In this document: positions 32,578-64,000 of the stretch, in pieces
Numbering within the stretch: position 1 is the stretch's first letter
How the letters are laid out: each line of letters begins with the position of its first letter
Assembly (NCBI GenBank): GCA_013138975.1
Contig: WTBR01000065.1
Coordinates: 43,750-107,749 of the forward strand
DNA from: Bacteroidales bacterium
Lineage (GTDB): Bacteria; Bacteroidota; Bacteroidia; Bacteroidales; UBA12077
Reading direction: 5' to 3'
DNA: 64,000 nt
Notes under the pieces: model-generated
What the model was told of the DNA's origin: nothing
Seen by the model: the letters and a program-made list of their open reading frames with translations, nothing else
Databases searched by the model: none
Program-made: the position numbers and the translations under genes

Positions 32578-32859
32578 TTATAGTTCAAATCCTTTATTAA
32601 ATTCTACTCTCCAAACTAACTGAGATAACTTTTTTTCTTCATTTAATCTGTATTGCAACATTTTATGAGATTCAAGTTCTTTCCAAATTTCTTCCAATTT
32701 AGAATCATCTGTTGGTGTTAAAAAGAATATTGCAGCGGTAAGTCTTGTTAATATATTTTCATAAGGTAATTCCCATTCTGAAATTAGTCCTTTTTCTTTT
32801 AATTCTTCTAAATGTTTTTTTACTGCTTTAATTTCAGGAACATTTCCTATTTGTACCAT
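32578..32859 (-). CDS. Hypothetical small protein
   Basis: 93-aa ORF, the first gene of a two-gene unit. I recognise no family. Confidence 0.5.
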   Translation of the reverse strand: MVQIGNVPEIKAVKKHLEELKEKGLISEWELPYENILTRLTAAIFFLTPTDDSKLEEIWKELESHKMLQYRLNEEKKLSQLVWRVEFNKGFEL

Positions 32860-33211: not shown

Positions 33212-35590
33212 TTATTCATATTTGAGAGCTTCAACCGGGTTAGAATTTGCACTTTTTAAGGTATTCTTTAGCACAGTTAATAGAACTATTAGCATAGAAA
33301 GGACAAACGATAAGAGAAGGGTTTTTAAACTCAAATCCTCTTTATAAACAAAATTCGATTGCCACTTATCAAGAAAATATAAAACAATTGGCCAACTGAT
33401 AATATTGGCTAATAGAGTTAAAATTCCATATTTTCTTAGAAATAATAATACGATTTTATATGATGTAGCTCCATTAACTTTTCTAATTCCAATTTCTTTT
33501 TTCTTTTTAGAAATTGAAAAAAGAGATTGCCCGTACAAGCCAATTGCTGCCAAAAGAATTGATATTATGCAGAAAAAAAGAATTATTCGATTTATGTTAT
33601 CCTCTTTATAAAAAGAGGAACTAATTTTATCTTGTACTTCTAAAATTTCAAACTGATGATCCGGGAAATATTCATTCCATGTGTTTGTGGCAAATTCTTT
33701 CGCTTTTGCTTCTCCATTTTTAGTTGTTTTTAGAATAAAATGGTTAGAATTTCTTGGTTTATGAAGCCTAATATGCAATGGATTCTTATTATGCAATAAG
33801 GAAAAAGAATAAAAGTCTTCTACCACCCCTACAATTTTATGATCGTTAATTTTCTCCTCAAGTGGATTTTGATAATTCAGTAATTGGGCTGCTTTTAAAT
33901 TTATTATACACGACTGTGAATCACTAGCTAATCGATTGTCTAGATATCGACCTTCTACAAGTTTAATATCCATTAGTTTTAGATAGTTCCCATCGGTGTG
34001 AATTAGGTCTAAAATAATTCTTGTTTCAGGATCATCTTTAACAGGTATAGAACTAATACCTTTCCAATCTGTCGGTGGCAGTCGAAAACCTGAAACAACG
34101 TCGGTTATTTCAGGAGATTCTAATAAATTAAATTTTAAATTCATTAATTGACTTGCTGTTAATTTTCCGTCTAAATCTGTAACATGCAATCTGTTTTCTG
34201 TTTCGAAACCCGGATCTTTCTTTTTTAAAAACGAAATTTGGCTATAAATACTAAATGTACCTGCAATTAAAACGGTGAAAATTATAATTTGAAAAACGGT
34301 TAAGGAATATTGGAATAGATTTTTCCCTTTGCCCAAATTTGCGTTGCCATTTAGAAGTTTGATTGGAGATTTCCGTGCCAAGAAGAAACTAATATACCCT
34401 GATGATATAATGCTAATAATTATTGTCACAATTAGAAAAGTTCCTAATTGCATCCAATTTCCAAATAGATCAATTTCAATTTGAGTACTAAATAACATAT
34501 TTATTTTATTAATACTAAGTTTAATCAGAAGTAAAGCAATAATAAATGCGATAAAACTTGTAAAAAACGATTCAATAAATTGCTGTCTCCTTATTGATTT
34601 TGTATGACTCCCTATGGTCTTTTTCAGTCCAATCTCTTTTAATCGAGATTCAGAACTTGCCATAGATAAAATGATATAGTTTATCGAAACAATAAAAAGG
34701 ATAAGAATCCCTATTCCTAGAAATAAAAACAAATATGTTGTGTTACCACGTTCAGGGTCATTCATCAAACCTTTTGAATTAAAATGAATATCCAATAAGG
34801 GTTGAAAATAAAAATGTCTTTCCTCTTTTGGAAAAGATTCATTTTCTTCGGATTTATTCCAATTTTGAGTGAATAAATCTATTCGATTAGATTCGTTTAA
34901 TGTAAAATATGTTTCAAAGTAATTCATGCGCCAATCAGATCTAATTGCACTAAAATAACTTCTTCTAGACAAATGCTTTATGATAAAATCATTACTTAAA
35001 AGCATATCAAAAGTAATAGAAGATTCTTTTGGAAAATCATCAACAATAGCATTAATTTGAAATGAATAAATTTCATCATCTATTTGAATATCAATAAGAT
35101 TTCCAATAGGATTTTCTCCATTAAAATACTTTTCATACATGCTTTTTGTTAACACAATTGAGTTCATATTAGTTAAACAATTGTTTGTATTTCCATATAA
35201 AGTATTTGTAGTAAAAACATCAAAGAAACTATTTGAAGTAAACATTGGTTGAGATACTCTTACAAATTCATTATTAACTTTTATGTGAGCATCATAGGGG
35301 TATAATAACTGAGTAACAGCTTCTACTTCAGGAAAGTTATTGCTTAACTGAGTTCCTAAAATATTGGGGGTGTTTGGACCATTAGTTTTATACTTTTTAT
35401 AATGATTTAATACTCGATAGGTTCTATCCTTTTTCTTGTGGAATTTATCATAACTCGTTTGATCGATCAAATAAGAAAGAATAATAAACGTACAGGCAAA
35501 ACCAATAGAAAGACCTATAAGATTAATAAAAAACATGGTTTTGTTTTTCATCAATAATCGTATTGATGAAACGAAATAATGCTTAATCAT
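33212..35590 (-). CDS. FtsX/MacB-type ABC transporter permease (two FtsX modules, MacB-like periplasmic domains)
   Basis: 792 aa with an N-terminal TM, a large extracytoplasmic domain and a 3-TM block, duplicated. The C-terminal end NPVEALKYE is typical of Bacteroidota FtsX-like permeases. No ATPase gene is adjacent. Confidence 0.88.
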   Translation of the reverse strand: MIKHYFVSSIRLLMKNKTMFFINLIGLSIGFACTFIILSYLIDQTSYDKFHKKKDRTYRVLNHYKKYKTNGPNTPNILGTQLSNNFPEVEAVTQLLYPYDAHIKVNNEFVRVSQPMFTSNSFFDVFTTNTLYGNTNNCLTNMNSIVLTKSMYEKYFNGENPIGNLIDIQIDDEIYSFQINAIVDDFPKESSITFDMLLSNDFIIKHLSRRSYFSAIRSDWRMNYFETYFTLNESNRIDLFTQNWNKSEENESFPKEERHFYFQPLLDIHFNSKGLMNDPERGNTTYLFLFLGIGILILFIVSINYIILSMASSESRLKEIGLKKTIGSHTKSIRRQQFIESFFTSFIAFIIALLLIKLSINKINMLFSTQIEIDLFGNWMQLGTFLIVTIIISIISSGYISFFLARKSPIKLLNGNANLGKGKNLFQYSLTVFQIIIFTVLIAGTFSIYSQISFLKKKDPGFETENRLHVTDLDGKLTASQLMNLKFNLLESPEITDVVSGFRLPPTDWKGISSIPVKDDPETRIILDLIHTDGNYLKLMDIKLVEGRYLDNRLASDSQSCIINLKAAQLLNYQNPLEEKINDHKIVGVVEDFYSFSLLHNKNPLHIRLHKPRNSNHFILKTTKNGEAKAKEFATNTWNEYFPDHQFEILEVQDKISSSFYKEDNINRIILFFCIISILLAAIGLYGQSLFSISKKKKEIGIRKVNGATSYKIVLLFLRKYGILTLLANIISWPIVLYFLDKWQSNFVYKEDLSLKTLLLSFVLSMLIVLLTVLKNTLKSANSNPVEALKYE

Positions 35591-35764
35591 ATTTAGATTT
35601 TTTTGTTATTAATAATATTTATACTGTCTATTTAATGCTACATTCTTAAAGAATGTTATCTTGTCACTACTAATTGCATTTATAAAAAAATTATGAAATT
35701 CATTATTGCTTAATAAAAAACTTTTCAATAAAGACTTGTTAATCAGCTAAATTAATTTTGCCAT

Positions 35765-36496
35765 TTACAAAAGTTCAAAATTAAAAATTGAACTATAATC
35801 TTCAAAAGAGTATTTTGGATGTAATTGTCCAAAATAATCCAGATCAAATGGGGTTTCAATAAATCCTAACCACTTTTGCAAAATCTCATTTTGGCCTAAC
35901 CTATCTCCAAGAAAGCTTTCCTCAACCTTTGTAAATGGTATATATAATTCTGCAATTTGATTGAATGAAAAATTTCGCTTTACAGCCTTTTTATATAACT
36001 TTCCTAATTTAGAATATCTATCCTTACAAATAATTTGTATTGCTGTTTCAGGAAAACCATGAAATTTACTAAATGGAGCTATCCATCCTTTTGTTGAATC
36101 TTTGATATATTCAGCCATTTTATGACTCATAATATAAAAGTCCGATTCTATATGAATAATCTTATCATAATCATATAATTGTGCTATTTTATATGAAAAT
36201 GTGAAACTCCTCCACCAACCTTGATAATCATTCCACGTTGGTCTTCCTAAATTATTTTTGAAATGTACCAGATTTATTTTTTTATTGATAGATTCAGGCA
36301 TATTCTCCGGATCTAATATATCCATTTCATATCCGAAATCAGTATCCGGGCTTCCATCATCAATTAGAAACAGATGCTCTGAATTAAAATATTTCATTCT
36401 TTCCAAATAGAATTCTACCCATCTTCGATACCTTTCCTTATTGTTACTATCACTGTTATTATTAATATAACTTGTACAAAATATCAATGTTTTCAT
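35765..36496 (-). CDS. Hypothetical protein, possible GT-A-fold (nucleotide-sugar) transferase
   Basis: HLFLIDDGSPDTDF resembles the GT2 DDGS motif, and HIESDF is a possible DxD-like site. There is an alternative upstream ATG at 36544. The functional call is weak. Confidence 0.6.
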   Translation of the reverse strand: MKTLIFCTSYINNNSDSNNKERYRRWVEFYLERMKYFNSEHLFLIDDGSPDTDFGYEMDILDPENMPESINKKINLVHFKNNLGRPTWNDYQGWWRSFTFSYKIAQLYDYDKIIHIESDFYIMSHKMAEYIKDSTKGWIAPFSKFHGFPETAIQIICKDRYSKLGKLYKKAVKRNFSFNQIAELYIPFTKVEESFLGDRLGQNEILQKWLGFIETPFDLDYFGQLHPKYSFEDYSSIFNFELL

Positions 36497-36653
36497 ATGT
36501 TTAAGTTTTTTGTAATATATAAAATAGTTATTAAACAGAACCATATTTGGGTTGTATTCTGGTAAGAATTGTTTATTTTTTATATGTTATAATGAAACAT
36601 CACTTTGCTTTAGGCTTCTTTTTTCAAAGCTTATTGTACTATTAAAAACCTGA

Positions 36654-39600
36654 TCACTTTTTCTTTAATATATCGCTAATAATTTTCACATTAGTTTCTA
36701 TATGAACAGGAAATAGCATTTCGAAATGCGATCCATTACCCGGATAAAGAGAAAAATGATTATTGGTATATTCTTTCATGCTTTGCACCTTTCCCAATGT
36801 TTCTTTTCTATTTTCTTCATGCCATTGTGAGTGTATAAAATGGATATTTGCATTAATAATTTCAAATTTAGTAATGTTTCTTAAAAAGGAATTATATCCA
36901 ACTATCTTCCTACGTACTTGATCCATTAAGGAATCCAAATTTATTTTCTTCATTTGTTCGTATGTTGAATCAATAAAAAAATCCAAGCTTTTTTCAATCT
37001 CTTCTTCTTTTAAACTTTGCATTTTTTCTAAATCCTTTTCGTTCCATAAGCCATCAATCAAGATTACATCAGAAACGACCTTACCTCTTTGTTCTAGTTC
37101 TTTAGCAACTAGTGAAACTAATTTACATCCAGCTGAATAACCCATTAATCTGTAAGAACTTTGATTATCTATCTCCAATATTTTATTAGCATAGTAATTG
37201 ACTAAATCAATATTCTCAACATAATTGAATGAATGAAAACAATATTCAGGTATTAATCTAGCTACTTCAGCAAAGCAAAGTCCATATCCTATCATTGGAG
37301 GGAAACAAAAGATATTCTCTTTGTTTTTGTCATTATATATCTCATAATCAATTGAAACAAACTTATTTGCCATAATATCTTTTGCAATGGCTTGTATATT
37401 TGATGCCTTGTAAATATGCATTAAAGGTAGAGATATGCCAAATTCAGTTTTAATGGCTGAAACTACGTTTAAAACCTTTAAAGAATGGCCTCCAAGTTCA
37501 AAAAAATCAGCCAAAACACTTATTTCAGTTATTGGAATATTTAAAATTCGAGACCAGATAGCTACAACTTTTTCTTCTGTTTCACTAGCTGGACCAACAT
37601 AATTGTGGTCGGCTTTTACTTGAGGTAATGGTAAGGCTTTATAATTTACTTTCCCATTAGCTGTCAGAGGCAAGCTTTCTATCTCTACAATACAGGATGG
37701 CACCATATATTCAGGTAACAAATCTGTCAAATAACTTCTAAAATCGTTCTCATATTCTTTTTGTCCTAATACAACATAAGCACATAGATATCTATCGTCC
37801 CCTTCTCCTCTGACTATTATTATACATTCTTTTACATTTTCATATTTTAATAAAACATTTTCTATTTCGCCAAGCTCTATCCTAAAACCACGAATTTTCA
37901 CCTGATTATCATGACGTCCAAGTAATTCTATGCACTCTCCTTTTACTTCCTTTCCTATATCTCCTGTTTTATAAACTAAATCATCTGGATTCTCACTAAA
38001 CGGATTTTGTATAAAACTCATTTTTTCATTCCCATTCACATCATAATACCCTAATGTTTTATATGGAGTTCGTATATAAATCTCTCCAGAGATGCCTGTG
38101 GGACATATATTTTGATTCTTATCTAATACTATAAATCTTGAACCTTTTATTGGTTTTATTGGTATATATTGTCTTGAGATATCTTCAATTTTTATTCTGT
38201 ATGATGATTTTGCCAATGTTGTTTCTGTGGGGCCATAGATGTTGACTAGCTGAATCCTTTCTTCAAAAATTTCATACCATTTTTTTAATTCAAAAGGTAT
38301 AATTTTTTCACCTGCTAATAATATATATTTTAATCCATTGATCCGCCCACTATTCAGTTCAACTTTATTCATTTGTCTAAATACACTTGGAACACAATGC
38401 ATTAAAGTTACATCACTTTTCTCTATCCAATCTATGAGCTTTTCTCCATTAAGCTGTATTCCTTCATTCGGTATACATATAGATCCACCTGCAACTAAAG
38501 GGGCAAAAATATCTCTTAAAAAAACATCGAACCCCGGATTTGTAAGTTGACTGAAGTTGTATGTATGGCATATTGAAAATTCAGATATTTCCCATTTAAT
38601 AAAATGTGCCAAACTATTATTTTTACCTAATATGGCCTTTGGCACACCGGTACTTCCCGATGTGTAATAAATATATAATGGGTCAGATGGTAAATACTCC
38701 AACTTTATTCCGCTCTTCCAATTCGTATTATATATTTCATTATTTAAATTAATAAATTGTGTATCTGTTAAGTTGTTTTGATTTTGTTGAAAGACCCGAT
38801 CCATTCCTTCCCCAACTATTATCCAATTGAGTTGTACTTGCTCAACCATACTCAATATTCTATTAACTGGAAAATTAGCATCAAGTGGAACAAATACGCA
38901 ACGAGCATGAATTATACCCAAAATAATGCTTATTACCTCTACTCTATCATTGGAATAAACCCCAATCAAACTTCCTTCTTTTATCCCCAAATTTGATATA
39001 TGCATTGCTATTGCCGTATATCTATTTTGAAGCTCTTTATAACTTATTTCTCCATTTTCATCTTTAATTGCTATTTTATCTTGGTTATTTCTAAAACTTC
39101 TCCTAATAATTTCTTGAATAGTTAATTCTTCAATTTCCGGATCTGTTATTATTTCATTGAATTTTTCTATTTTTATTTTTCTATCTTCTATTGATAGCAA
39201 ACTTATTGTGGATATCTTTTTTTGTTGATTTAATGCTACCTGATCAGTTAATATCTTAAAATAATCAATAAATTTGCTTATTGTTTCTTTATTAAATAGT
39301 TTCTTTCTATATTCAAATATCAGCACAATATTGCTTCTATGCTCCCATCCTCTTAAATACAAATCAAACTTTACATTCCCCTCTGAATAAATATTCTTTG
39401 TATCTTCAATTTCTTGATTTTTGCTAAAATCAATATGATTAAGCAAATTAAACATTACATCAATTAACGGATTTCTACTTAAATCTCGCCCGATCGATAT
39501 ATTCTCAACTAATTCCTCAAATTGATATTCTTGATTCTCAAAAGCATCTAAAACGTTTTGCCTTAATCTTGCAACAAACTCTTTTATGGTATTATCTTCT

Positions 39601-48274: not shown

Positions 48275-48276
48275 GA

Positions 48277-51200: not shown

Positions 51201-54200
51201 CATCTTTTATTTTAGTAAGCTTCACGTTAAACTTAACCTGATCATGTATCTTTTGAACTGGTTGTTCATCTATTATTTCAAAACTAGTTCTGAAACTTTC
51301 ATGACGTTCTATAAGCCTATCTATAACTTGAGTTATTTTTTCCTTATTTATTTCTTGCGATAACTCAATAACACCCGGTAAATTATAAGCAATACTATCT
51401 TTGTTTAATTGTTGAAGAAAATATATCCTTTTTTGAGCTGAAGATAAGTTATAATATGATTTCTCAGGAGCTTTTGAAATAGTTAAGAAACTTTCCTTAG
51501 ACGAAGATTGTATCCTATCTGATAATTTTTTTATTGTTTGATATTGGAATACTTCAATTAATCTTAATTTTACTTCAAATTTTTTATGAATTTTCGATAT
51601 TAATAAAGTCGCTCTTAAAGAGTGTCCTCCTAAAGTAAAGAAGTTATCTTCTATTCCAATTTGATTTGCATCAATGTTTAGTATTTCTGACCAAATTTCC
51701 GTTAAGCATTTTTCAAGCTCATTTGTTGGAGGAGCATAGTCTTCTCCCGCTTCAATTTTTGGAACTGGTAATGCCTTTCTATTTATTTTTCCATTTGGTG
51801 TTAGCGGAATAAAATCCAATTCTATGAAAAATAAAGGGATCATATAGTCAGGTAGAGTTTTTGACAGGTGATCTCTAATTGACTTTATAAGTTCTTGTTT
51901 TCTTAAACCAGCAACAAAATAAGCACAAATAAATTTTTCTCCCTTATCATCTTCGCGATCTATAACAACTACTTGTTTTACTTGTTTTAGTTCAAGAATA
52001 CAGTTTTCAATTTCATTAAGTTCGATTCTAAAACCTCTAATTTTAACTTGATGATCTATACGTCTTAGAAATTCAATATTTCCACTTTTATGGTGTCGTA
52101 CCATATCACCGGTTTTAAATATTTTTGAATCAGACAACTTATTTTCTACAAATTTCTCATGAGTAAGTTCCGGCTGGTTTAAATATCCTCTTGACAAACC
52201 ATCACCTGAAACACATAATTCCCCGGATATGCCCATTGGAACAGGGGTTCCTTGATCATCTAAAATAAAAGTTTTTAGATTAGATAATGGTTTCCCAATA
52301 AACATTGGTAAACCGTTATTTACATAAATCTTATTACTGCTACTATTTTCTTTTAATAATAACTCTTTTATTTTTTCGAGTTCTATGGTTGAATTGTTTT
52401 CATCAAAAAGTTCATTTGCTATTTCCATTTGATTTTCCAGAACCCTAAATATATCCTGATATGTTGTTAATGGATTCGACAAAACTACTCTAAGTACTAC
52501 AACATCTATTTCTTTTGCGTATTTTGTATGGGTAAGTGTTGTTTTTGAAACAAAAGTTTCACCTTTGTAAAATTGATGATTTTGTAATTTTAAATTTACT
52601 TCATTAATTTCATTCTGATATTTATTTAAATCATTTTTATTAGCAATCATATCCCTGAATTTTTCAGGAATATATCGATAACAAACAATGTTTAACTGAG
52701 GTTTCATAATGAGTTCAAAGCAATCCAAAGTTTCTATTAGCTTAGATAAAAATACAGATGAATTAATTCCTTGCTCAATTAAGGATGCATATCCCTTTTT
52801 TCCAATAAGATGAAGAGAAGCATGCAAACTCATAGAAATTGCTGATCTTGAACCTTCAATTGTAAATCGCCCTGTATCAAATGAATTATTAGTAGCTTGA
52901 TAATTAGCAGTAACAGAACCGTACTGCAATAATTTCGGGTCTTTAAATAAACAAACACTTATGCCTTGTGGCAAATAAAGTTGTTTATGACCACAGAATG
53001 TAATTGAATCTGAAAGCTCTATACCATTTAATCTGTTGGCAAATTTCTCTGAAAACATAGTTGCTCCACCCCAAGCGGCATCCACATGAAAATGGATATT
53101 AAACTCTTTGGCAAGCTCTCCCATTTCCACTAATGGATCTATTTCTCCTGTTTCTGTTGTACCTGCTATTGCAACTATTGCAATAATTAACTTCTTACTT
53201 TTATTGCATTCAATAATAATAGATCTAAGGTTATCAATATCTAACTTCCCATCTTTATTGTAATCAGCATAAATAATATTATCGGTTCCCATTCCAAGAA
53301 TCGACGCTGATTTCTTTATGGAATAATGCATTAACCTTGATCCAATAATTACCATATCATCATAGCCATGTTTCTCTAATGCTTTATAAATACTGTGTTG
53401 CATTACAGTATTATTTTCATCTAATGCAAGCAATTTTTTATTTCTTGCTGCAAGCATTGCGGAAATGTTGGATGTAGTACCCCCGGTTGAAACTATTCCC
53501 AAGTTTGTATTAACTGTTTGTATATATTCAGAATAAAATTCATCATTAAATGAATAAAATAAACGATGAAGTATAGCAAGTGCCTCCCTTTCAACAAATG
53601 TTAAGGATTTTGAAGTTTCTATTTTTACCAAATTTTGATTTAGTTGGGAAATCAGTTTACTAAAATCATTTACAAAATCGGGTAATGCAGAGGTCATATG
53701 ACCTATATTCTGTGGCGCTGCTGAATTAATAACAAATGGTAATATGTCTTTATAAAGGATCTTGTTATATTCATCTAAGGATATTGGATAATCTGGGGCT
53801 GTACTTTTCTTAAACCTATTTGCTATTGAATCCAAACTAACATTTGGCATTGTAATAGCTCCAGGTTTTAAAATATCTATGGCTGGATTTATATGAATAT
53901 TCTTAAAATATTTATGAACATCCTCAATATAAAACCTTGTTACTTCGTGATATGTTGCATCTGCACTAACTTCAGATGAACCATAAACATTTATTAGTTT
54001 TGAATTTGTAAATTCTTTATAAAACTCTTCTGCTAAATCTAAATTTAAAGCTTCGCCACTACAAAATACATATTTTAAACTTTTTAAGATCTCCCTATTC
54101 TGCTTTATTGAAATAATTGTCTTTAAGAAAGAAGGAACTAATACAGTTCTAGTAATCTTATATTTATCTAATAAATCGATAAATATTTCGATGTCTTTTG

Positions 54201-57200: not shown

Positions 57201-59502
57201 CTAAATCTTTTCTTCCTTCTGCTTCTTCAATAATTAATTTTAACCTCGAAGGTGTTAGTTGTAATATATTTACTTTATGTTTTTCAATTAATTTAGAAAT
57301 TAATCTCGGTTCTGTTTGTTCTTCATTATTCCCTAGCACCATTTTAGCACCACTTAACAATGGTACAAACAGTTCCAGTCCAAAAATATCGAAAGCGACT
57401 GTGGTTAATGATAGTAATGTGTCAGTTTGTTTTGTTTGTATTAGTTCGAACATTGAAAATACAAAATTCACAACATTCTGATTATCTATCATTACCCCTT
57501 TTGGTTCTCCTGTTGATCCTGACGTGTATATTACATATGCAAGGTTTTCTTTGTTAGTTTTTATGGATTCAAATACTGTTTCTTCAAAATTTATATCCTT
57601 TAAAATATCAATTTGTGTTGCTTTAATATTTTCACTTCTTTTATTATTTACTAACACATATTCTATTTCACTTTTCTCAATAATTAACTGGTTTCTTTCT
57701 TCAGGATATAAAGGATCCATTGGTAAATATGCTGCTCCGGCTTTCAAGATTCCCAATATCCCTATTATCATTTCAATACTTCTATCGATCATTAAACCAA
57801 TCAATTGTCCTGACTCCACTCCTCTTTTAGTCAACTCTATAGCTACACTATTTGATAGTTCATCTAACTCCAAAAATGTTTTACTTTCATTATTAAAAAT
57901 TAATGCTGTTGCTACCGGAAGTTTTATTACATTTTCTTTAAAAAGCTGAATTATGGTTTTATCCTTAGGGTAGTTGGTTTTAGTTTTATTAAACTCAAAT
58001 AAAATATGGTTTTTTTCTTCCTTCGTGATAATTGATAAATCTGAAAGTTTTCTATCAAAATCACCATTTAAGTTTTGTACAATAATTTTAAAATATGCAA
58101 TAAATCTTTCTATAGTTTTAGGGCTAAACAATTTTGTACAATACTCAAAGTTCAATAATATCTGATCTCCACAATCTACGGCTATAAGATGTAAATCTAA
58201 TTTGGCTACATGTTCTGTATGTATAAATTCTCTTTCCAACTTAGATAAATCTTCTTTATGATCGCTTATATTATTTAAATTAAATGAAACATCAAATATT
58301 GGATTTCTGCTTGTATCTCTGTAATGGATTACTTTCTCTACTAAATCTTCAAATTGGAAGTCTTGATTTTCAAATGCTTGTAATGCTGCAGATTTAACTT
58401 CATCAAAGAATTCTAATAATGTTTTTTCCTTATTAGGAAAACTCCTGAATGGCAAGGTATTTATAAATACACCAACAATCTCATCTAAATCAGAATGTCT
58501 CCTACCTGCAAGCGGTACTCCGACAATGATATCATTTTGCCCACTTATTTTTGACAGTAATATTTTAAACGCCGACAATAGCGCCATAAATAAAGTAACA
58601 TCATACTTTGAGACTATTTTTCTCAAAATATTCGTTTCATCAACAGTTAAAGCAATCTTTACAGAAGCTCCTTCTGTTGATTGATACACCGAACGTGGAT
58701 AATCAGTTGGTAAATCAAGAATTGGTAATTCATCTGAGAATCTATTTACCCAATATTTCTTTTGACTTTTTATATTATCTTGTTGTTCTTTACTATTTTG
58801 CCATTCTGAAAAATCTTTGTATTGTAATTTTAATGGTATTAGTTCTTTCCCTTTTATTAAATCAAAAAAATCATGTGTTAATATCTTAAAAGAAGTTCCA
58901 TCGCTAATAATGTGGTGCATATCAAGCATTAAAACAGACTCATCTTCCTTTCTAACCAACTGAACTCTAAACAAGGGTGCCTCACTAAAAATGAATGGCT
59001 TAACAAATTGCTTCAATACAATTTCTAAATCATTTTCAGCAATTTCTTTTTCATGTATTTTAAATGTAACTTTTTCATGTACTTGTTGCACCGGGTGATC
59101 ATCAATAATTTTAAAGCTTGTACGAAAATTTTCATGTCGGTCAATCAGTTTTTCGAAAGCATCCCTTAATCTGTCGATATCCTCATTTCTTGATAAAGGA
59201 ATCAAATGTTGCACATTATATACCATACTTTCCGGATTCATCTGTTGAAGGAGAAACATTCGTTTCTGGGCGGATGATAATGGATAATATTCTTTATAAT
59301 CTGCTTTTGTTATTGTTATAAACTTATCTTTATTATCAATTCCTGATAAGTATTTTAATAGTTCGCTCTTATTCTGTTTAATTTCCTCAATAATATCTTT
59401 TGGAATTTTTCCTTGGGATGATTGAATTTTGAGCTTATTATTATCTACTATTACCTTAATATTTAGTTTATAAAGTTTTGACAATAAATCTTTTATTTTC
59501 AT
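48277..59502 (-). CDS. NRPS, 3741 aa: docking-C-A(Gly-like)-T-C-A(interrupted by a PLP decarboxylase domain; beta-Ala-like code)-T-C-A(Asn-like)-T
   Basis: Three HHIISDG C domains (aa 196-202, 1228-1234, 2808-2814). Three A domains with cores at aa ~659-668, 1698-1708 and 3279-3288. Three GGHSL carriers (Ser1048, 2628, 3672). It is a single uninterrupted ORF. Confidence 0.97.
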   Translation of the reverse strand: MKIKDLLSKLYKLNIKVIVDNNKLKIQSSQGKIPKDIIEEIKQNKSELLKYLSGIDNKDKFITITKADYKEYYPLSSAQKRMFLLQQMNPESMVYNVQHLIPLSRNEDIDRLRDAFEKLIDRHENFRTSFKIIDDHPVQQVHEKVTFKIHEKEIAENDLEIVLKQFVKPFIFSEAPLFRVQLVRKEDESVLMLDMHHIISDGTSFKILTHDFFDLIKGKELIPLKLQYKDFSEWQNSKEQQDNIKSQKKYWVNRFSDELPILDLPTDYPRSVYQSTEGASVKIALTVDETNILRKIVSKYDVTLFMALLSAFKILLSKISGQNDIIVGVPLAGRRHSDLDEIVGVFINTLPFRSFPNKEKTLLEFFDEVKSAALQAFENQDFQFEDLVEKVIHYRDTSRNPIFDVSFNLNNISDHKEDLSKLEREFIHTEHVAKLDLHLIAVDCGDQILLNFEYCTKLFSPKTIERFIAYFKIIVQNLNGDFDRKLSDLSIITKEEKNHILFEFNKTKTNYPKDKTIIQLFKENVIKLPVATALIFNNESKTFLELDELSNSVAIELTKRGVESGQLIGLMIDRSIEMIIGILGILKAGAAYLPMDPLYPEERNQLIIEKSEIEYVLVNNKRSENIKATQIDILKDINFEETVFESIKTNKENLAYVIYTSGSTGEPKGVMIDNQNVVNFVFSMFELIQTKQTDTLLSLTTVAFDIFGLELFVPLLSGAKMVLGNNEEQTEPRLISKLIEKHKVNILQLTPSRLKLIIEEAEGRKDLAKIGKLLVGGEEFPFGLYQTVKEFFPGLLYNMYGPTETTIWSAIKKLDNKDVLNIGKPIGNTNIYILNEDNKMQAIGIAGELCISGDGVGKGYFANDQLTHEKFISDPFIEGETLYKTGDLARWLSNGELEFIGRIDNQVKIRGYRIEIGEIENSILKNNEVKECVVIVREDTNKEKYLCAYLVINGENEIIESIKETLMFHLPEYMIPSFFINVDAIPLTANGKIDRKKLPIPKINAGDQYIAPSNDIEKKLTTIWAKVLNISSSEISINANFFNIGGHSLKASILAGKIHKEFGVEFILRDMFLLSTIKDQAKRVQTSNKKEFNSIPKAKIKEYYNLSSAQKSMYFLQLLNPESISYNMPGIINLNQNFKKEEVATAFKTLVLRHESFQTCFMIINDVPIQQIQKDVFFEIQESTIVESELQAQRESFVRPFDLGKAPLLRVEIVNIENSNPVLMFDLHHIISDGTSNEILKQDFLKLMEGEELEPLTLQYKDFCEWQNSEDQQNSIKEKEHFWINQFSDELPILNLPTDYSRPPIQSTKGAFASFVLSKEETKMVRSIAKEGDSTLFMALLSIYNILLSKLSGQDDIVIGTPIASRLHSDLEGIVGMFINTLPLRNYPSSFKTVKEFLQEVKQNTLLSFDNQEYQFEDLVEKLSVERDTSRNPVFDVMFNMFNMKEFSGDLSALDYEEFNHKNGISKFDLTLTAFDYGDQILLGFEYCTKLFKPQTIEQYIRYFRQIVQQLSSKKSNKILEIDLLSLDERKKILFDFNDTKMEYPVEKSIKQLFEEQVKINGDRIALIEGDNQITNFELNKRANQMAGYLVRNGVKPQTLIAICEKRSIDMIVGMLAIIKTGGIYIPLDPNYPSDRLNFMLKESNAEILITKDIYKSLFSNIKANVICPENHDKEIKKETVNNLKIKILPDDITYIIYTSGSTGNPKGVMGKSKGIINRLYWLWNTYPIGDGERSCQKTSVSFVDHVAEIFSSLLNKDPLYIFSEENTKDIEIFIDLLDKYKITRTVLVPSFLKTIISIKQNREILKSLKYVFCSGEALNLDLAEEFYKEFTNSKLINVYGSSEVSADATYHEVTRFYIEDVHKYFKNIHINPAIDILKPGAITMPNVSLDSIANRFKKSTAPDYPISLDEYNKILYKDILPFVINSAAPQNIGHMTSALPDFVNDFSKLISQLNQNLVKIETSKSLTFVEREALAILHRLFYSFNDEFYSEYIQTVNTNLGIVSTGGTTSNISAMLAARNKKLLALDENNTVMQHSIYKALEKHGYDDMVIIGSRLMHYSIKKSASILGMGTDNIIYADYNKDGKLDIDNLRSIIIECNKSKKLIIAIVAIAGTTETGEIDPLVEMGELAKEFNIHFHVDAAWGGATMFSEKFANRLNGIELSDSITFCGHKQLYLPQGISVCLFKDPKLLQYGSVTANYQATNNSFDTGRFTIEGSRSAISMSLHASLHLIGKKGYASLIEQGINSSVFLSKLIETLDCFELIMKPQLNIVCYRYIPEKFRDMIANKNDLNKYQNEINEVNLKLQNHQFYKGETFVSKTTLTHTKYAKEIDVVVLRVVLSNPLTTYQDIFRVLENQMEIANELFDENNSTIELEKIKELLLKENSSSNKIYVNNGLPMFIGKPLSNLKTFILDDQGTPVPMGISGELCVSGDGLSRGYLNQPELTHEKFVENKLSDSKIFKTGDMVRHHKSGNIEFLRRIDHQVKIRGFRIELNEIENCILELKQVKQVVVIDREDDKGEKFICAYFVAGLRKQELIKSIRDHLSKTLPDYMIPLFFIELDFIPLTPNGKINRKALPVPKIEAGEDYAPPTNELEKCLTEIWSEILNIDANQIGIEDNFFTLGGHSLRATLLISKIHKKFEVKLRLIEVFQYQTIKKLSDRIQSSSKESFLTISKAPEKSYYNLSSAQKRIYFLQQLNKDSIAYNLPGVIELSQEINKEKITQVIDRLIERHESFRTSFEIIDEQPVQKIHDQVKFNVKLTKIKDEEIGNARKGFVKVFDLSKAPLLRVEMFETEGGRNFLLYDMHHIISDGVSHVILKKEFSQLSQGIELPSIPLQYKDFSEWQNSETQKENIKAQESFWVEKYSGEIPKLELPYDYNRPSLQSHSGASVYYVLTQKETSAIKSIAKENDATLFMVLLAVFNIMLSKLSGSKDIIIGTPVASRRHSDLEGIIGMFVNTLALRNELKKNERLSDFIINVKNNALEAFDNQECQFEDLIDKLSLERDISRNPLFDVMFNLLNHDEFAGELKSITNEHFTGTSKFDLNLTAFDFGDQLLMNLEYCTKLFKSETIDRFIIYFKSIVKQLCANSDIKISEFDILVKQEKQETLIDFNKTVESYPKDKTIIELIENQASITPLAKALIFGEESMNYQDLMKKVNSLAVQFIQKGIGSNDVVAILISRSEKTIITLLAVLKAGGAYLPIDLNLPLERKKYIIENSNSKLVVLDSNISDYDREQLFLNIDIEKIIKIEEIWNLNEDQNNININYDSGCLAYIIYTSGTTGKPKGVMIENRSLVNYIWWAKKVYVGNETVNFPFYTSVSFDLTVTSIFTPLISGNAVVVYSDIPNEILLNKVLNDNKSGVIKLTPSHLKLIRDDSSIIPSDVSNVKRFIVGGEQLETKLANEILDKYRGKIEIFNEYGPTEATVGCMTYQYKKSESLNKAVPIGIPAANSRIYLLDEDCNPVPKGVCGELYIGGDSLARGYIGNQDLTDEKFVENSILNEKKLYKTGDLAKFLCDGNLEFIDRIDEQIKIRGYRVELKEIENCLLKHPDIKECVTIALDKEGEKSICSYIVLYNKKLNTDQIKDYLFRELPAYMIPAYFVELESIPLTGNGKVDKKDLPWPEVKVGDDYEAPTNKIEEKFVEVWSEVLGIEKEKIGIDANFFELGGHSLFMIKVVQKITNSTGYKLNIMDLFRNTSIRKLANYIEGVSDFDVSKNNRTEEINKGKESMKILLKKTRR
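52309..53940 (-). other. Group II PLP-dependent amino-acid decarboxylase-like domain nested in the second A domain (aa ~1855-2398)
   Basis: Motifs are STGGTTSNISAMLAARN (aa 2005-2021), HVDAAWGG (nt 53065..53088) and SITFCGHK (Lys2173 codon at nt 52984..52986). It is flanked by A5 (NVYGSSE, nt ~53971..53991) and by IGKP / A6 GELCVSGD (nt 52201..52224). Confidence 0.8.
59338..59502 (-). other. TubC-N-like N-terminal docking domain (3741-aa NRPS)
   Basis: IKDLLSKLYKLNIKVIVDNNKLKIQSSQGKIPKDIIEEIKQNKSELLKYL shows the same pattern as the N-terminus of the 2365-aa NRPS. Confidence 0.65.
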
Positions 59503-59798
59503 AATGATTTCTTATGATAAGATGATAAAGAATATATTATTTAATATCCGCAAGTATATTTTCATTCATTTAGATATTAAGTAATTAGCCGTACCTCGAT
59601 TAACTACTATAGATGACATGAAACTATAACCAACTTGCTGATTATTAATAAATCCGTGCCACGCTTTGCGGATTTAAGATATTAATTTAAATATTTATTT
59701 TATATTGAATTCCCTATGCTAAACAGAGTTAATCAATATGAAATTTGATGATACAGTGTTTTTAAGAATAGAGGAAACTTACTTCAACAATAGTCTAT

Positions 59799-62396
59799 TT
59801 ACACTTCTACTTCTTCTGATATATTCTCCATTTCCACTCCTTGAAAAATTAGCATCGCATATTCTAAAATTGTTGGTGCCTCAAAAACTTTAACTAAAGG
59901 AATATTTACATCAAATTCTTTATGAACTTTAGCTGTTAAAATTGTTGCTTTTAGGGAATGTCCTCCAAGATCAAAGAAATTTGCATTGGTACTTAATTTC
60001 TCTTGAGGTATTTTAAATAAATCAGACCATATCTTAACGAGTTTCTCTTCTGTTTTATTTGCCGGAGCAATGTATTCTTCCTGAACTTTCATTTCAGGTG
60101 TCGGAAGAGCTGTTTTGTTTATTTTTCCATTACTATTTAATGGCAGACTGTCTAACTCAACAAAATAAGACGGAATCATATAGTCAGGTAATGAATTTTT
60201 TAAATAAGCTTGTAACTCTGCTTGATTAAATTGTTCTTTACCCTCAAGGTATGCGCATAAGTACTTATCATCGTTTTCCTCCCTAACTATAACTACACAA
60301 TTCTCAACATTCCTATTTTTATTGATTGCATTTTCTATTTCTCCAAGCTCAATTCTAAAACCTCGAATTTTTACTTGATCATCAATCCTACCTATAAACT
60401 CCATATTACTATTAGGAAGCCAACGAGCAAGATCGCCTGTACGATATAATTTTTCTCCCTCAATAAACGGATGTGCGATAAATTTTTCATTGGTTAATTG
60501 CTCCTTGTTCAGATAAGCTTTCGCTAAACCTACACCAGAAACACATAACTCTCCCGGGATACCAATAGGCTTTAGCTGTTCACTATATTTATCCAATATA
60601 TAAACCTGCATATTATTAATAGGCAATCCTATAGGCACATTCGTTTCTTTATTATTATCATATTTATAAATCATACAACCTACTGTTGCTTCGGTTGGGC
60701 CATACTCATTATAAATTATAACTTCAGGATTCTTCTCTGTTATATTTCGACATAAATTAGAGTCCAATAATTCACCACCAACAATAAATTTATTAATACT
60801 GGTTGTTTTGTTTTTTTCTAAAAGCTGACTAAATACACGTAAATGTGATGGCGTAGCCTTTATTATGTTTACTTGGTCTCTTAGAACCATATCCTCAAGT
60901 ATTTCCAGAACATCTCCTTCAGGGTAAATTATTATTTTATTACCAGATAATAATGGTAAATAAATTGATGAAATGGTTAAATCAAAACTCATACTGGTAT
61001 ACAATGGCATACTAACTTCTTGTGAGTCTATATAATGATGTATTCCCCATTGTACATAATTAACTAAACTGGAATGAGCTATAACAACTCCTTTTGGTAT
61101 ACCTGTTGAACCTGATGTATAAATGATATATGCAGGATCATTCGATGAATACTTTATTTCTATGTTTTCACATGATCCTGAATATATATTAGGATCACTC
61201 ATGTCAAGCAGATTGTTCGATGGAATCCCTTGAAGGTTATTCGTGTTTTGAGTAATCAATTCAGAATGCGAAAGCAAAATTGACAATTCACTATCTTCAA
61301 TCAAATATTGTTTTCTGGAATTCGGGTAGTTTTTATCTATAGGCACATAAACACCTCCAACCTTTAATGTCGCTAAAATTGCAATAATTGAATCAATTGA
61401 TCGATTCAACATTATACCTATTCTCGAACCTACTTCTGCACCCTTACTTTGTAATAAATGGGCTAACTGATTCGATTTATTGTTTAAGTCTCTGTAATTT
61501 AATCGTTGTCCTTGAAATTCCAATGCAATATTGTCAGGAGATTTTTCAACCTGTGCTTCGAACAAATCAATTATCGTCTTATTATCTGAATAATTTGCCT
61601 TTGTTTCATTATTTTTTTGCAATTGAGCATATTTATCTTCATCATTGATAAGATCAATCTCTGCTAAAGGCTTATCTATATTTTCATAAAAAGATTCAAG
61701 AACCTTAGAATAAAAATTAAATAATTTTACTATCGTTTCATCTTTATAGAAATTAGAATTATATTTTATTTTGCATGATAATGAATCATTATTTACTGAA
61801 AATGAAAATAGTAAGTTAAATTTTATGTTGCTTAAATAATCCTCTGTTTGTAAGTTTTCTAATATTATTCCTATATCAAAAAACGGATAAAAATCATCTT
61901 TCTCATATGGTATCTTAAGCTTCTTTATTATATGTTCAAGAGGATAATTTTGATTTTTATTCGCTTCGATAATAATATCTTTTGTTTTTAATAATAACTC
62001 TTTAACACTTTGCTTTTCATCTACATTATTACGTAATACAAGAATTGTATTAATGAAATTTGCCCCACTTGTCTGCTTATATATAGATGTTCCTATTGAA
62101 ATGTCATTTTCAAAAGAATGCTTACGGATTAAAATAAACAATGCTGTTTTTAAAATAAATTGCAATTTTAAATCAGATCCTTTGCTTAACTTATTTATGC
62201 TTGAAAATATTTCATTTCCTATTTCAAATTCCAAATACTTGTATTCTGTTGTTTTGGTTTTAACATCAGGAAAATCACTTGGAAAATTACTTTTTTTGAA
62301 ATCTTCACCTAGTATTTTTAACCAATACTGCATTTCTTCTTGTTCTTTTTGAACTAATATTGTTGTTTTATCTGCATTCAATTTCTCGTCTTTCAT
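59799..62396 (-). CDS. NRPS module, 865 aa: (C-terminal-lobe-only C-like region)-A(Asn/Asp-like)-T
   Basis: The N-terminal ~250 aa align only with the post-HHxxxDG half of C domains (QYWLKILGEDF..FPSDFP ~ YWLKKFSDEIP..LPLDYSRP). A cores are YTSGSTGIPKG, NEYGPTE, YRTGDLARW and NGKINK. The carrier is FFDLGGHSLKA, followed by the acidic tail ENISEEVEV. Confidence 0.95.
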   Translation of the reverse strand: MKDEKLNADKTTILVQKEQEEMQYWLKILGEDFKKSNFPSDFPDVKTKTTEYKYLEFEIGNEIFSSINKLSKGSDLKLQFILKTALFILIRKHSFENDISIGTSIYKQTSGANFINTILVLRNNVDEKQSVKELLLKTKDIIIEANKNQNYPLEHIIKKLKIPYEKDDFYPFFDIGIILENLQTEDYLSNIKFNLLFSFSVNNDSLSCKIKYNSNFYKDETIVKLFNFYSKVLESFYENIDKPLAEIDLINDEDKYAQLQKNNETKANYSDNKTIIDLFEAQVEKSPDNIALEFQGQRLNYRDLNNKSNQLAHLLQSKGAEVGSRIGIMLNRSIDSIIAILATLKVGGVYVPIDKNYPNSRKQYLIEDSELSILLSHSELITQNTNNLQGIPSNNLLDMSDPNIYSGSCENIEIKYSSNDPAYIIYTSGSTGIPKGVVIAHSSLVNYVQWGIHHYIDSQEVSMPLYTSMSFDLTISSIYLPLLSGNKIIIYPEGDVLEILEDMVLRDQVNIIKATPSHLRVFSQLLEKNKTTSINKFIVGGELLDSNLCRNITEKNPEVIIYNEYGPTEATVGCMIYKYDNNKETNVPIGLPINNMQVYILDKYSEQLKPIGIPGELCVSGVGLAKAYLNKEQLTNEKFIAHPFIEGEKLYRTGDLARWLPNSNMEFIGRIDDQVKIRGFRIELGEIENAINKNRNVENCVVIVREENDDKYLCAYLEGKEQFNQAELQAYLKNSLPDYMIPSYFVELDSLPLNSNGKINKTALPTPEMKVQEEYIAPANKTEEKLVKIWSDLFKIPQEKLSTNANFFDLGGHSLKATILTAKVHKEFDVNIPLVKVFEAPTILEYAMLIFQGVEMENISEEVEV

Positions 62397-62440
62397 AATT
62401 AGATCATAATTTTTTAATAAATAATTTCTAGAGTTTTATT

Positions 62441-62599
62441 AATACCAACTAAACACCAAAATAAGCTATATAATTCGTTTCTTTTTCACTTATATTTCTT
62501 CAAAAAAGAAAATCGTAACTACTGCTATGCTAGTATTTTTTGAATCATCTAAGCAAAAAATAATTCAAATTATTTATAGCTCATTTTGAAATTTAATTG
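62441..62599 (+). repeat. Intergenic repeat rep1, copy 2 (inside the NRPS gene spacer)
   Basis: Aligns with 18421..18604 in the same orientation. Confidence 0.8.
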
Positions 62600-62634
62600 G
62601 CATAACTCTTAATATTTTCACCTATATAGTGTTT

Positions 62635-62862
62635 GCAAGAAAACGCCAAATTACTCACGAGTTTAATAATTATAAAATTGTGTTCGTGAGCTTCGCAAGG
62701 TTCTTCGTTACTCTCGTTTTGAAACCAGTTACTTCGACAGGCTCAGCACATAGCATTCACAAAAGTGAACTCCTTGGTTTTCAAAATCTCGAATTCCGAT
62801 AACTATCGGAACGTCTTTGACGCTTTCTTATCAAAGACTATAATAATATGTAGTTTTCTTGC
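62635..62862 (+). mobile_element. MITE-like structured repeat rep2, copy 2 (228 bp, carries an extra REP-like insert)
   Basis: TIRs are gcaagaaaac (62635..62644) and gttttcttgc (62853..62862). It has the same internal hairpins as 20269..20422, plus about 74 extra bp containing cttcgacaggctcagcac. Confidence 0.5.
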
Positions 62863-62884
62863 AGGCTCTATATAGTTTGGTTTC

Positions 62885-64000
62885 TTAAAATTCAAAATCA
62901 ACATCCTGTTGATCAAAAGGGGAACTAACTTCTGTCATTCTACTCATTAAATTAATATCATTTATCTTAACTGCATTACTATTTACAATTTGTTTAAAAT
63001 ATAATATAAATTGTTCTATTGTTTCAGGTTTAAATAATTTTGTACTATATACAAAACTTAACATTAATTGATCTCCATAATCAACAGTAGATAAGGTTAA
63101 ATCAAATTTGGAAGTTCCAGCATTATGAATCAAACATTGATTGTTAAAGTTTGATAAATCACCACTATATTCGTCCTGATTTAAAACATTAAACACAACA
63201 TTAAATATTGGATTATGACTAATGTTACGTTCTACAGATACTTGCTCTACTAAATCCTCAAACTGATAATCTTGATGCTCAAATGCTTCAAGGGTATTTT
63301 GTTTTAATTTACGTAAATACTCTTTTAAAGTATCGCTTCCTTTTACTTCATTCCGCATTACCAAAGTATTTATAAATAGTCCTACTATATTCTCCAAATC
63401 AACATGACTTCGACCTGCTATAGGTGTTCCTACAATTACATCCTCTTGACCTGTCAATTTGGAAAGGAGTATTGTGAAAACAGATAAAACTGACATGTAA
63501 AGAGTTAATTCATTTTCTTTTGTCAGTAATTTTATAATTTTTGTTTCTTCTTTACTTAATGTAAAACTAACAATGGCACCATCAAAGCTTTTCTTATCAG
63601 GACGAGTATAATCTGTAGGTAACTCTAATGCAGGAATTTCACCTTTAAATCTATTGATCCAATATTGTTCTTGTTTTTTTACTTTAACCTTCTGTTCTTC
63701 ACTGTCCTGCCATTCACTAAAGTCTTTATATTGCAACTCTAAGGGAGGTAAATCTTCACCTAAATACAGTTTCTGGAATTCTTGTTTTAAAATTACGCGT
63801 GAGACTCCATCACTTATAATATGATGCATATCTACCATTAACAAACTATCTTTTCCTTTGATTTCAACTATGGCTACTCGTAAAAGAGGTGCTTGAGTTA
63901 AATCAAAAACTTGTGTGAATTTGTTAAGGGTAGTTTGTTTTTCTGTTTCTTCAATCTTAAAGTTTTCAACTTTAAAATCTACATGATCATGTATGATCTG
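62885..64000 (-). CDS. NRPS, 5'-partial (continues beyond the right window edge); the visible part is a complete C domain followed directly by a stop
   Basis: The reading frame is open from 64000. The tracked TTG at 63844 is internal (..APLLRVAIVEIKGKDSLLMVDMHHIISDG..). The C domain is highly similar to the other C domains here and ends ..KINDINLMSRMTEVSSPFDQQDVDFEF*. Confidence 0.93.
   Translation of the reverse strand, partial: QIIHDHVDFKVENFKIEETEKQTTLNKFTQVFDLTQAPLLRVAIVEIKGKDSLLMVDMHHIISDGVSRVILKQEFQKLYLGEDLPPLELQYKDFSEWQDSEEQKVKVKKQEQYWINRFKGEIPALELPTDYTRPDKKSFDGAIVSFTLSKEETKIIKLLTKENELTLYMSVLSVFTILLSKLTGQEDVIVGTPIAGRSHVDLENIVGLFINTLVMRNEVKGSDTLKEYLRKLKQNTLEAFEHQDYQFEDLVEQVSVERNISHNPIFNVVFNVLNQDEYSGDLSNFNNQCLIHNAGTSKFDLTLSTVDYGDQLMLSFVYSTKLFKPETIEQFILYFKQIVNSNAVKINDINLMSRMTEVSSPFDQQDVDFEF

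Follow-up and report, generated by a model that had tools for sequence, protein, structure and literature searches.

A candidate hybrid peptide-polyketide assembly line with a decarboxylase-interrupted adenylation domain and an apparently split module in a Bacteroidales genome

The closest described relatives of the locus analyzed here come from several nonribosomal peptide synthetase (NRPS) pathways. In JamL of the jamaicamide pathway, a Pyridoxal_deC domain sits inside the adenylation domain, and its function was “not so far clarified” in a 2013 survey (PMC3870968); XabD is a stand-alone aspartate decarboxylase that provides the beta-alanine supply for the xenoamicin NRPS (PMC12668312). The loading module of ThdA (thermoactinoamide) consists of a truncated, probably inactive condensation (C) domain followed by adenylation (A) and carrier (T) domains (PMC7253712), and TubC-type beta-hairpin docking domains form the short linear motif/beta-hairpin docking (SLiM-betaHD) junctions of NRPSs and of hybrids between polyketide synthases (PKSs) and NRPSs (PMC9113145). 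Here, we examined a run of minus-strand NRPS and PKS genes in a 64,000-nt stretch of contig WTBR01000065.1 (positions 43,750 to 107,749; GenBank assembly GCA_013138975.1, Bacteroidales bacterium of the GTDB lineage UBA12077). Below, “the window” denotes this whole stretch, and all positions are counted within it.

In our judgment, the locus is likely to be a hybrid NRPS/cis-acyltransferase PKS assembly line, working as one collinear line and apparently intact. The open reading frames (ORFs) of the cluster run for ~27 kb without interruption and every catalytic motif is intact: there are six A domains, six full C domains (one of them in a gene cut by the window edge) and seven carrier domains, with their motifs present. 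In the C-A-T modules, HHxxxDG and the A3-A10 motifs are preserved, as are all carrier serines. The cluster belongs to a well-known kind of assembly line and is probably an orphan. Its best core-gene homologues are only 50% identical for the middle module of the 3741-aa protein, 64% for the C domain of the cut gene and 59% for the 259-aa accessory protein, none of them named as a known synthetase, and the near-identical matches to cluster genes are all unannotated Logan fragments. The two less common features of the locus, a predicted, self-supplying beta-alanine module of the JamL type and a split junction between two proteins, are not unique to it but common to many uncharacterized NRPSs.

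Domain order, codes and the polyketide module

Domain calls were made with Pfam, with E-values down to 0, and further families were assigned through NCBIfam. An earlier sequence-only reading of the window had listed the genes with their coordinates and minus-strand orientation, and the ORF table is identical; it also gives the spacer of 2 nt (48275-48276) and the start/stop overlap of 4 nt, ATGA (43748-43751), described there, by which the 1508-aa PKS gene is translationally coupled to both neighbors. That reading counted five megasynthase genes, four of which are complete; the fifth, a “319-aa gene”, proved to be just the final part of a longer gene that runs past the window edge (hereafter, the edge gene). 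The domain order drawn up by eye agrees with Pfam, except that a decarboxylase embedded in one A domain and an N-terminal half-C domain in the 865-aa protein (g865) had been overlooked. GC content is ~29-31% across the cluster compared with ~26-35% in the rest of the window, so that nothing suggests recent transfer.

To read the Stachelhaus codes, the six A domains were aligned and the ten positions taken via the FDxS, (T)P(S), GGE, NxYGPTE and GK anchors; this motif-anchored alignment gives codes identical to all six that had been extracted by eye (Table 1). For the amino acids behind them (Asn-like, Gly, beta-Ala-like, Asn and Leu), we rely on published code tables. The last A domain (37650-39074) is divergent: its A3 motif ends in PKA, not PKG, its A6 region has the unusual sequence RTPYKTLGY, and its code, DVRHLAILAK, carries basic residues at positions 239 and 278. 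These features may point to a substrate that is acidic or unusual in some other way. The terminal thioesterase (TE) domain predicted for the 2365-aa protein is found by Pfam together with a GYSAG motif; the candidate Asp lies in VILIDG and the candidate His in GNGSHF. The sequence-only reading saw no epimerization (E), methyltransferase (MT) or heterocyclization (Cy) domains, and Pfam combined with motif inspection of the megasynthases likewise detected no second HH motif of a dual E/C domain, no DxxxxD motif of Cy, no MT motif and no additional stretch of the Condensation family. Short acidic C-terminal tails are present on g865 (ending in ENISEEVEV) and on the 1508-aa protein, and the tail of g865 is the probable docking partner of TubC_N in the 3741-aa protein.

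The ketosynthase-acyltransferase-ketoreductase-carrier (KS-AT-KR-T) architecture proposed for the 1508-aa protein is borne out by Pfam matches to KS, AT, KR and PP-binding and by the active-site residues. The closest solved relatives of its KS-AT region are KS-AT didomains of the cis-AT type, including CurL at 526 bits, and Pfam further identifies CurL-like and RhiE-like linker domains. The proposal that this module performs a single C2-type, beta-hydroxy extension holds in part: the catalytic motif of the KR is present, whereas the malonyl extender is likely but not secure, given the AT motif RAGH. The YTQP and GHSFG motifs ahead of RAGH presumably are malonyl-like, and the extender is probably malonyl-derived. 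The AT of ZmaA (4qbu), which reportedly uses hydroxymalonyl-ACP, is also among the solved relatives, at 335 bits.

The junction between the edge gene and g865

The frame that stops at 62885-62887 is open up to position 64000, the window edge. It encodes a full elongation-type C domain (Pfam Condensation, 273 bits), with HHIISDG located 312 aa from the end of the protein and 48-56% identity to the cluster's five remaining C domains, and it terminates within the C-A linker in SSPFDQQDVDFEF (final residues DVDFEF). The following protein, g865, starts with half a C domain in which HHxxxDG was not found and which, judging from its sequence, is catalytically dead. Near its N-terminus lies the motif EEMQYWLKILGEDF; proteins that start with a half-C share the pattern (D/E)YW(L/I)xKLSG.

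This arrangement recurs. The first 275 residues of g865 were compared by phmmer with 1.84 billion representative proteins, and the best 150 matches were analyzed. Between 75 and 81 of these 150 start with half-C-A-T, as g865 does, in a shared layout with the half-C first, the A3 motif near residue 430, the T domain near 810 and the first full C domain near 1000; a YWxxxLxG-type motif is present in 59 of 75 such relatives. At the other end, 86 of the best 150 matches terminate in a C domain. Tails observed on C-ending proteins, each directly before the stop codon, are LDFDF, QNFDF, ITFEF, GDFSF, VDFGF, GDFDF and VEFDF, and an FxF/I/L end is found in 45 of 87 C-ending proteins versus 9 of 177 others. 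In three loci (L005, L006 and L009), the megasynthase upstream of the half-C-A-T protein ends in a full C domain, as identified by Pfam or HHIISDG; for L008 and L011, precomputed Pfam lists give neighbors of 666 aa (Condensation only) and 605 aa (PP-binding and Condensation). The (D/E)FxF-type tail is found on the C-ending neighbors in L005, L006, L008, L009 and L010, and the spacers between the C-ending and half-C-starting genes are a mere 10-12 nt in L006, L008 and L011. Finally, in L002, a Logan contig with a 95%-identical relative of g865, the edge-gene homologue ends in DQQDVDFDF, ~80 nt upstream of the 865-aa gene.

Because it recurs in other loci and in the 95%-identical relative, the junction is supported as native, most simply as a module split between C and A, and the edge gene is accordingly treated as part of the same line. 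The earlier supposition that the cut upstream gene belongs to this line thus gains ground: a C domain with a (D/E)FxF end followed by half-C-A-T is found in unrelated loci as well as in the close relative. As a separate observation, in L005, L009, L010 and L011, genes for B12-binding radical-SAM proteins lie between consecutive NRPS genes, at junctions of this type; no such gene was found in the window.

We also considered a truncation scar left by a mobile-element-associated deletion, which was suspected because the 488-nt gap between the edge gene and g865 is made of repeats that are also present at 18.4 and 20.3 kb. This candidate was rejected: the gap contains no NRPS remnants, the half-C at the start of g865 and the DFxF ending are both native and conserved, L002 shows this junction too, there with 80 nt between the genes, and the gap repeats resolve into two discrete insertions, A and B. 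Element B has 11/11 terminal inverted repeats (TGCAAGAAAAC) and a second copy at ~20261-20430, flanked by TAATTAG, with target duplications of 7-8 bp at both copies, and element A has a second copy, 92-95% identical, at ~18419-18603. Neither element is present in L002, and L003 likewise lacks both. By sequence and position, A and B look like miniature inverted-repeat transposable elements (MITEs), intergenic and leaving the coding sequence untouched. Their second copies flank a histidine-kinase gene (18865-20034). Short Logan contigs of relatives end near the junction of the edge gene with g865, although L002 and L003 are without the elements. An Rfam scan of the whole window produced no matches, and a promoter/terminator scan of the 488-nt gap gave results no better than those for shuffles.

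The strongest competing explanation, which we nevertheless regard as unlikely, posits two assembly lines, in which g865 is a true loading module that begins a product of six residues and one ketide, whereas the terminal C domain of the edge NRPS releases a product of its own, for instance, onto a free amine. The ThdA loading module, in which a truncated, probably inactive C domain stands ahead of A (PMC7253712), is a precedent for this division, and both the 488-nt spacer and the lack of a TubC_N docking domain in g865 are compatible with it. Against it, the pairing of a C-ending, (D/E)FxF-tailed protein with half-C-A-T returns in L005, L006 and L009; the Pfam lists for L008 and L011 show it as well, and in some of these loci only 10-12 nt lie between the genes. 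Moreover, the spacer shrinks to ~80 nt in the 95%-identical relative, its extra length here coming from the two MITE-like insertions, and the edge C domain, at 48-56% identity, is an ordinary paralogue of the elongation C domains of the cluster. We therefore prefer a single line that passes through a split module.

The split-junction class is defined here from its recurrence in this analysis and is not a named family. It is frequent in NRPSs of uncultured Bacteroidota, in those of the Aminicenantes type and in others; no description of a junction split between C and A was found in the literature searched, and a docking-domain review lists no such class (PMC9113145). We tentatively suggest, as a possibility that is more likely to fail than to hold, that the C-(D/E)FxF end and the half-C-A-T start make up an undescribed class of NRPS inter-subunit interface, in which the vestigial half-C would offer a platform where the upstream C domain, or the tail of that domain, could land.

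The decarboxylase within the second adenylation domain

Inside A2, the second of the three A domains in the 3741-aa protein, a 545-aa pyridoxal phosphate (PLP)-dependent decarboxylase had gone unnoticed in the sequence-only reading. Pyridoxal_deC (PF00282) matches aa 1917-2277 of the protein with an E-value of 5.6e-49. The insert begins ~10 residues past A5 and ends before A6, at a site where the five other A domains have a loop of 7-10 residues, and the motifs of the host domain follow in order on both sides (A3 at aa 1699, A5 at ~1838, the insert at 1855-2399, then A6, A7 at 2462 and A10 at 2566). Among NCBIfam families, the insert best matches TIGR03799 (PanP, aspartate 1-decarboxylase), with 496 bits over positions 43-522 of the 522-position model, and the runner-up, 2,4-diaminobutyrate (DABA) decarboxylase, reaches 147 bits. 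The residues characteristic of group II PLP decarboxylases are kept, namely, the PLP lysine K2173 in CGHK (52984-52986) and the aspartate in HVDAAWGG.

A search of 5.8 billion proteins recovered the C-A(PF00282)-T layout in more than 100 proteins, none of them more than 50% identical to the query. The carriers of this fusion include cyanobacteria, Bacteroidota, Thiotrichales, Desulfobulbales and others; most of the nearest full-length relatives, 48-50% identical, are C-A(decarboxylase)-T proteins of a single module from cyanobacteria, and the JGI annotation of relatives reads “putative pyridoxal-dependent aspartate 1-decarboxylase”. In an alignment of 111 sequences, the code of the fused A domain is almost invariant, (V/I)DAxFSxADK, and the PLP Lys and the Asp are kept in 109. 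In VDAVFSVADK, Asp235 is lost and an Asp occupies position 236, a D235-less (V/I)D code that, from published codes, we take to be of the beta-amino acid (beta-Ala) type. Because the code is near-invariant and the PLP residues are retained throughout this fusion family, the decarboxylase and the D235-less, beta-amino-acid-type pocket appear as a strictly coupled pair. The hesitant “beta-Ala?” first attached to A2 is thereby strengthened, resting now on an embedded PanP-like decarboxylase and on a code conserved in 100+ proteins with the same fusion. We infer that the embedded domain makes beta-alanine from L-aspartate next to the A pocket that activates it. The decarboxylase-in-A architecture of JamL has reportedly been known since 2004, and the jamaicamide pathway, with JamL, is said to incorporate beta-alanine; this architecture is not new and is shared with many uncharacterized NRPSs.

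It is quite improbable that the embedded decarboxylase is dedicated to another product, such as gamma-aminobutyrate (GABA) from Glu or a DABA-derived diamine, or is a structural relic. Such readings could be prompted by the PanP score, which at 496 bits lies under the equivalog cut-off of 606, by the closest solved structures, which are DABA/Glu-type decarboxylases at 126-169 bits (no close structure of the insert was found, the best PDB match being that at 169 bits), and by the fact that biochemistry of the fusion was not found in the literature searched. Yet, PanP is ahead of every other decarboxylase family by ~350 bits and over the whole model, the PLP Lys and Asp are retained in 109 of 111 sequences, and the fused A domain always has the D235-less (V/I)D code, which we take to be linked to beta-amino acids. 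Furthermore, JamL has the same fusion, in a pathway that reportedly incorporates beta-alanine. We therefore retain beta-alanine as the predicted product of the embedded domain.

Predicted product, neighboring genes and described relatives

The collinear order put forward in the sequence-only reading, that is, an upstream part followed by Asn-like, Gly, beta-Ala, Asn, a ketide with a beta-hydroxyl, Leu and X, with release by the TE, stands after all tests that were run. Under this scheme, the chain would start on a protein beyond the window edge whose last domain is the full C domain of the edge gene. The edge protein and g865 would form a natively split module, in which the edge C domain condenses the upstream chain in trans onto an Asn/Asp-type residue held on g865, with the half-C acting as a non-catalytic scaffold. 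Docking of the acidic tail on TubC_N would then hand the chain to the 3741-aa protein for the addition of Gly, beta-Ala and Asn; here, the PanP-type decarboxylase, inserted between A5 and A6 in a loop at the A-domain surface, would convert L-Asp into beta-Ala, which the same A domain would adenylate and load. The KS-AT-KR-T module would extend the Asn-terminated chain by one reduced, probably malonyl-derived C2 unit, yielding a statine-like gamma-amino-beta-hydroxy acid. After docking to the 2365-aa protein, Leu and residue X, for which no substrate matched the code, would be added, and the TE would release the product by hydrolysis or cyclization; a protein with a glycosyltransferase A (GT-A) fold may decorate the product and an FtsX permease may export it.

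Several observations weigh against this scheme. The start of the assembly line lies outside the window; scans of genome and metagenome contigs with g865 for sequence past position 64000 yielded no matches, the exact g865 protein being found only on a 2.8-kb Logan contig and its 96% relative only on contigs of 2.7-3.6 kb. The MITE-like insertions widen the spacer between the edge gene and g865 to 488 nt and may uncouple transcription. The AT specificity motif, RAGH, is neither HAFH (malonyl) nor YASH (methylmalonyl), and the “LDD” position of the KR reads INS, so that the predictions of extender unit and stereochemistry are weakened. The PanP score of the insert falls short of the equivalog cut-off, and the literature searched holds no biochemical work on decarboxylase-interrupted A domains. 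Given that ThdA provides a documented case of half-C-A-T as a genuine loading module (PMC7253712), g865 could initiate a chain. Lastly, a phosphopantetheinyl transferase (PPTase) was not found in the 64-kb window; the sequence-only reading had seen no PPTase, MbtH-like gene or type II TE, and, indeed, none is present among window ORFs of at least 150 aa or the small cluster-adjacent ORFs.

That the cluster is decaying or silent, a non-functional remnant, is very improbable, for although the two MITE-like insertions between the edge gene and g865, the PPTase, MbtH and type II TE not found in 64 kb and the half-C domain of g865 might hint at decay, ~27 kb of ORFs are uninterrupted with all catalytic motifs intact, the insertions are intergenic, the half-C and the C-terminal tail of the edge protein are conserved native features, a 95%-identical copy is present in other samples, and PPTases are commonly encoded elsewhere in the genome.

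Two accessory genes lie downstream of the TE gene. The 259-aa protein has 313 homologues of ~240 aa, none annotated and all starting near its second Met, and the real start is probably this Met at 36496 (MKTLIFCTSY...), giving 243 aa; with 36496-36544 thereby lost, the spacer to the TE gene becomes ~157 nt. The protein gave no sequence matches in Pfam, NCBIfam or the PDB, even at E = 10. Its AlphaFold (AF2) model is of high confidence (pLDDT 96.3, pTM 0.93), and in a Foldseek search of the PDB, all 50 top listed matches were of the GT-A type (GT6 enzymes, GfsA, ArnC), with TM-scores of 0.38-0.54, probabilities of 0.99-1.0, E-values down to 5.5e-6 and ~10% identity. The label “GT-A-like” given to this gene earlier is thus appropriate at the level of the fold and not at that of sequence, where neither a curated GT family nor a canonical DxD motif was found; the invariant D47 (IDDGS) and E117-S118-D119 could serve in place of the latter. 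A 59%-identical homologue is encoded beside a 4600-aa NRPS and carbamoyltransferases, and, together with the modeled fold, this makes the protein a possible tailoring enzyme. The 792-aa protein, predicted to be an FtsX/MacB-type permease, is matched by Pfam to MacB_PCD and twice to FtsX and is a duplicated permease; in NCBIfam, it scores 163 bits against the ADOP-family duplicated permease and 89 bits against the DarB-like family, both far under the cut-offs. No ORF for an ABC ATPase was found between 29600 and 36700. By its position next to the cluster, which is the sole link, the permease is a possible exporter.

The phylogenetic setting is suggested by RlmN of the window (5796-6836), which is 85% identical to its homologue in a metagenome-assembled genome (MAG) of Salinivirgaceae and 72-80% identical to those in MAGs of other Salinivirgaceae, Bacteroidales and Marinilabiliales. 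No natural-product report for this Salinivirgaceae-like Bacteroidales lineage, known here from MAGs, was found in the literature searched, and with this locus the lineage would gain a sizeable NRPS-PKS line that is apparently intact. In the predicted product, beta-alanine occurs alongside a statine-like gamma-amino-beta-hydroxy residue; motifs of these kinds are associated with protease inhibitors, a connection that is speculative for this cluster. The locus further offers compact, well-delimited test cases for two under-studied aspects of NRPS enzymology, an A domain with its own substrate-making decarboxylase and a naturally split C/half-C-A-T module, the latter being relevant to NRPS engineering at the C-A linker. 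It is a good genome-mining lead and not surprising beyond that.

The rest of the window carries other genes. At its start, 77-559 is an ORF with a HEPN domain, and 8743-9354 is a 203-aa ORF with only the N-terminal domain of a DEAD-box helicase that may be a truncated gene. A set comprising an ECF sigma factor, a FecR anti-sigma factor and a TonB-dependent receptor with STN and CarboxypepD_reg domains (9776-14895) fits Bacteroidota, and a second, short FecR-only ORF of 189 aa (17799-18368) lies just before the second copy of element A. An operon at 23875-29622 encodes a DUF4212 protein, a sodium:solute symporter, a TPR protein and an 837-aa Cache-PAS-CBS-DUF294 nucleotidyltransferase and, from these families, looks like a system of acetate/solute uptake with a sensor, unrelated to the cluster. 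Past the downstream end of the cluster are two small ORFs, a lipoprotein and unrelated plus-strand genes; the two ORFs (120 aa and 93 aa; 32190-32859), on the same strand as the permease, have no convincing family assignment, a weak CBF_beta match of the 120-aa ORF being probably spurious.

Table 1. Genes, domains, insertions and adenylation codes of the cluster, in window positions (amino acids behind the codes are presumed)
Feature	Position	Strand	Details
Permease, 792 aa	33212-35590	minus	ORF table
259-aa protein	35765-36544	minus	ORF table
NRPS, 2365 aa	36654-43751	minus	ORF table; TubC_N-C-A-T-C-A-T-TE (Pfam)
TE of 2365-aa protein	36702-37316	minus	Pfam Thioesterase, aa 2146-2350; GYSAG
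PKS, 1508 aa	43748-48274	minus	ORF table
T of 1508-aa protein	43778-43972	minus	S1462
KR of 1508-aa protein	44288-44848	minus	GGLGGIG; Y1311
AT of 1508-aa protein	45875-46711	minus	GHSFG (S618); R643; RAGH at aa 716-719
KS of 1508-aa protein	47147-48250	minus	C175, H310, H347
NRPS, 3741 aa	48277-59502	minus	ORF table; TubC_N-C-A-T-C-A-T-C-A-T (Pfam)
Decarboxylase insert, 545 aa (aa 1855-2399 of 3741-aa protein)	52306-53940	minus	Pyridoxal_deC within A2
TubC_N docking domain of 3741-aa protein	59344-59496	minus	Pfam
NRPS, 865 aa (g865)	59799-62396	minus	ORF table
T of 865-aa protein	59856-60047	minus	PP-binding
A of 865-aa protein	60123-61562	minus	AMP-binding; code DLSKIGEVGK, Asn/Asp-like
Half-C, aa 1-265 of 865-aa protein	61602-62396	minus	Pfam Condensation, model 190-452 only
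MITE-like insertion A	62438-62603		166 nt; imperfect terminal inverted repeats ATGCCAATTAA / ATACCAACTAA
MITE-like insertion B	62622-62867		246 nt, counting a single copy of the 8-bp target duplication CTATATAG
Edge NRPS gene	ORF 62885-63844; open frame 62885-64000	minus	3' part of a gene that continues beyond the window edge; 371 codons and stop
A1 of 3741-aa protein			code DILQLGMIWK, Gly
A2 of 3741-aa protein			code VDAVFSVADK, beta-Ala-type; A domain interrupted
A3 of 3741-aa protein			code DLTKIGEVGK, Asn
A1 of 2365-aa protein			code DAWFLGNVVK, Leu
A2 of 2365-aa protein			code DVRHLAILAK, no substrate matched

Set against the described systems, the A2 module shares with JamL a Pyridoxal_deC domain (group II PLP decarboxylase) inside an NRPS A domain, a likeness drawn from the published architecture; unlike JamL, it is the middle module of a trimodular Bacteroidales NRPS, located between the Gly and Asn modules and not after a PKS. 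PanP (TIGR03799) and XabD share with it the predicted chemistry, L-Asp to beta-Ala, and XabD also serves an NRPS, whereas the enzyme in the window is fused into the A domain and scores under the PanP equivalog cut-off. The PKS protein resembles the CurL-like cis-AT KS-AT modules at NRPS-to-PKS interfaces in its KS-AT didomain and linker domains but has RAGH in place of HAFH in the AT and follows an Asn-loaded T domain, from which the statine-like unit is predicted. TubC-type docking is likewise found here in its standard use, with PF18563 (TubC_N) at the N-terminus of both the 3741-aa and the 2365-aa protein and short acidic tails on the proteins upstream of them, but this class is not used at the junction of the edge gene with g865. 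There, as in ThdA, an N-terminal half-C domain without the catalytic motif directly precedes A-T; however, whereas ThdA initiates its chain, the protein that comes before the half-C here, as in no fewer than five further loci, carries a full C domain and a conserved (D/E)FxF tail at its C-terminus.

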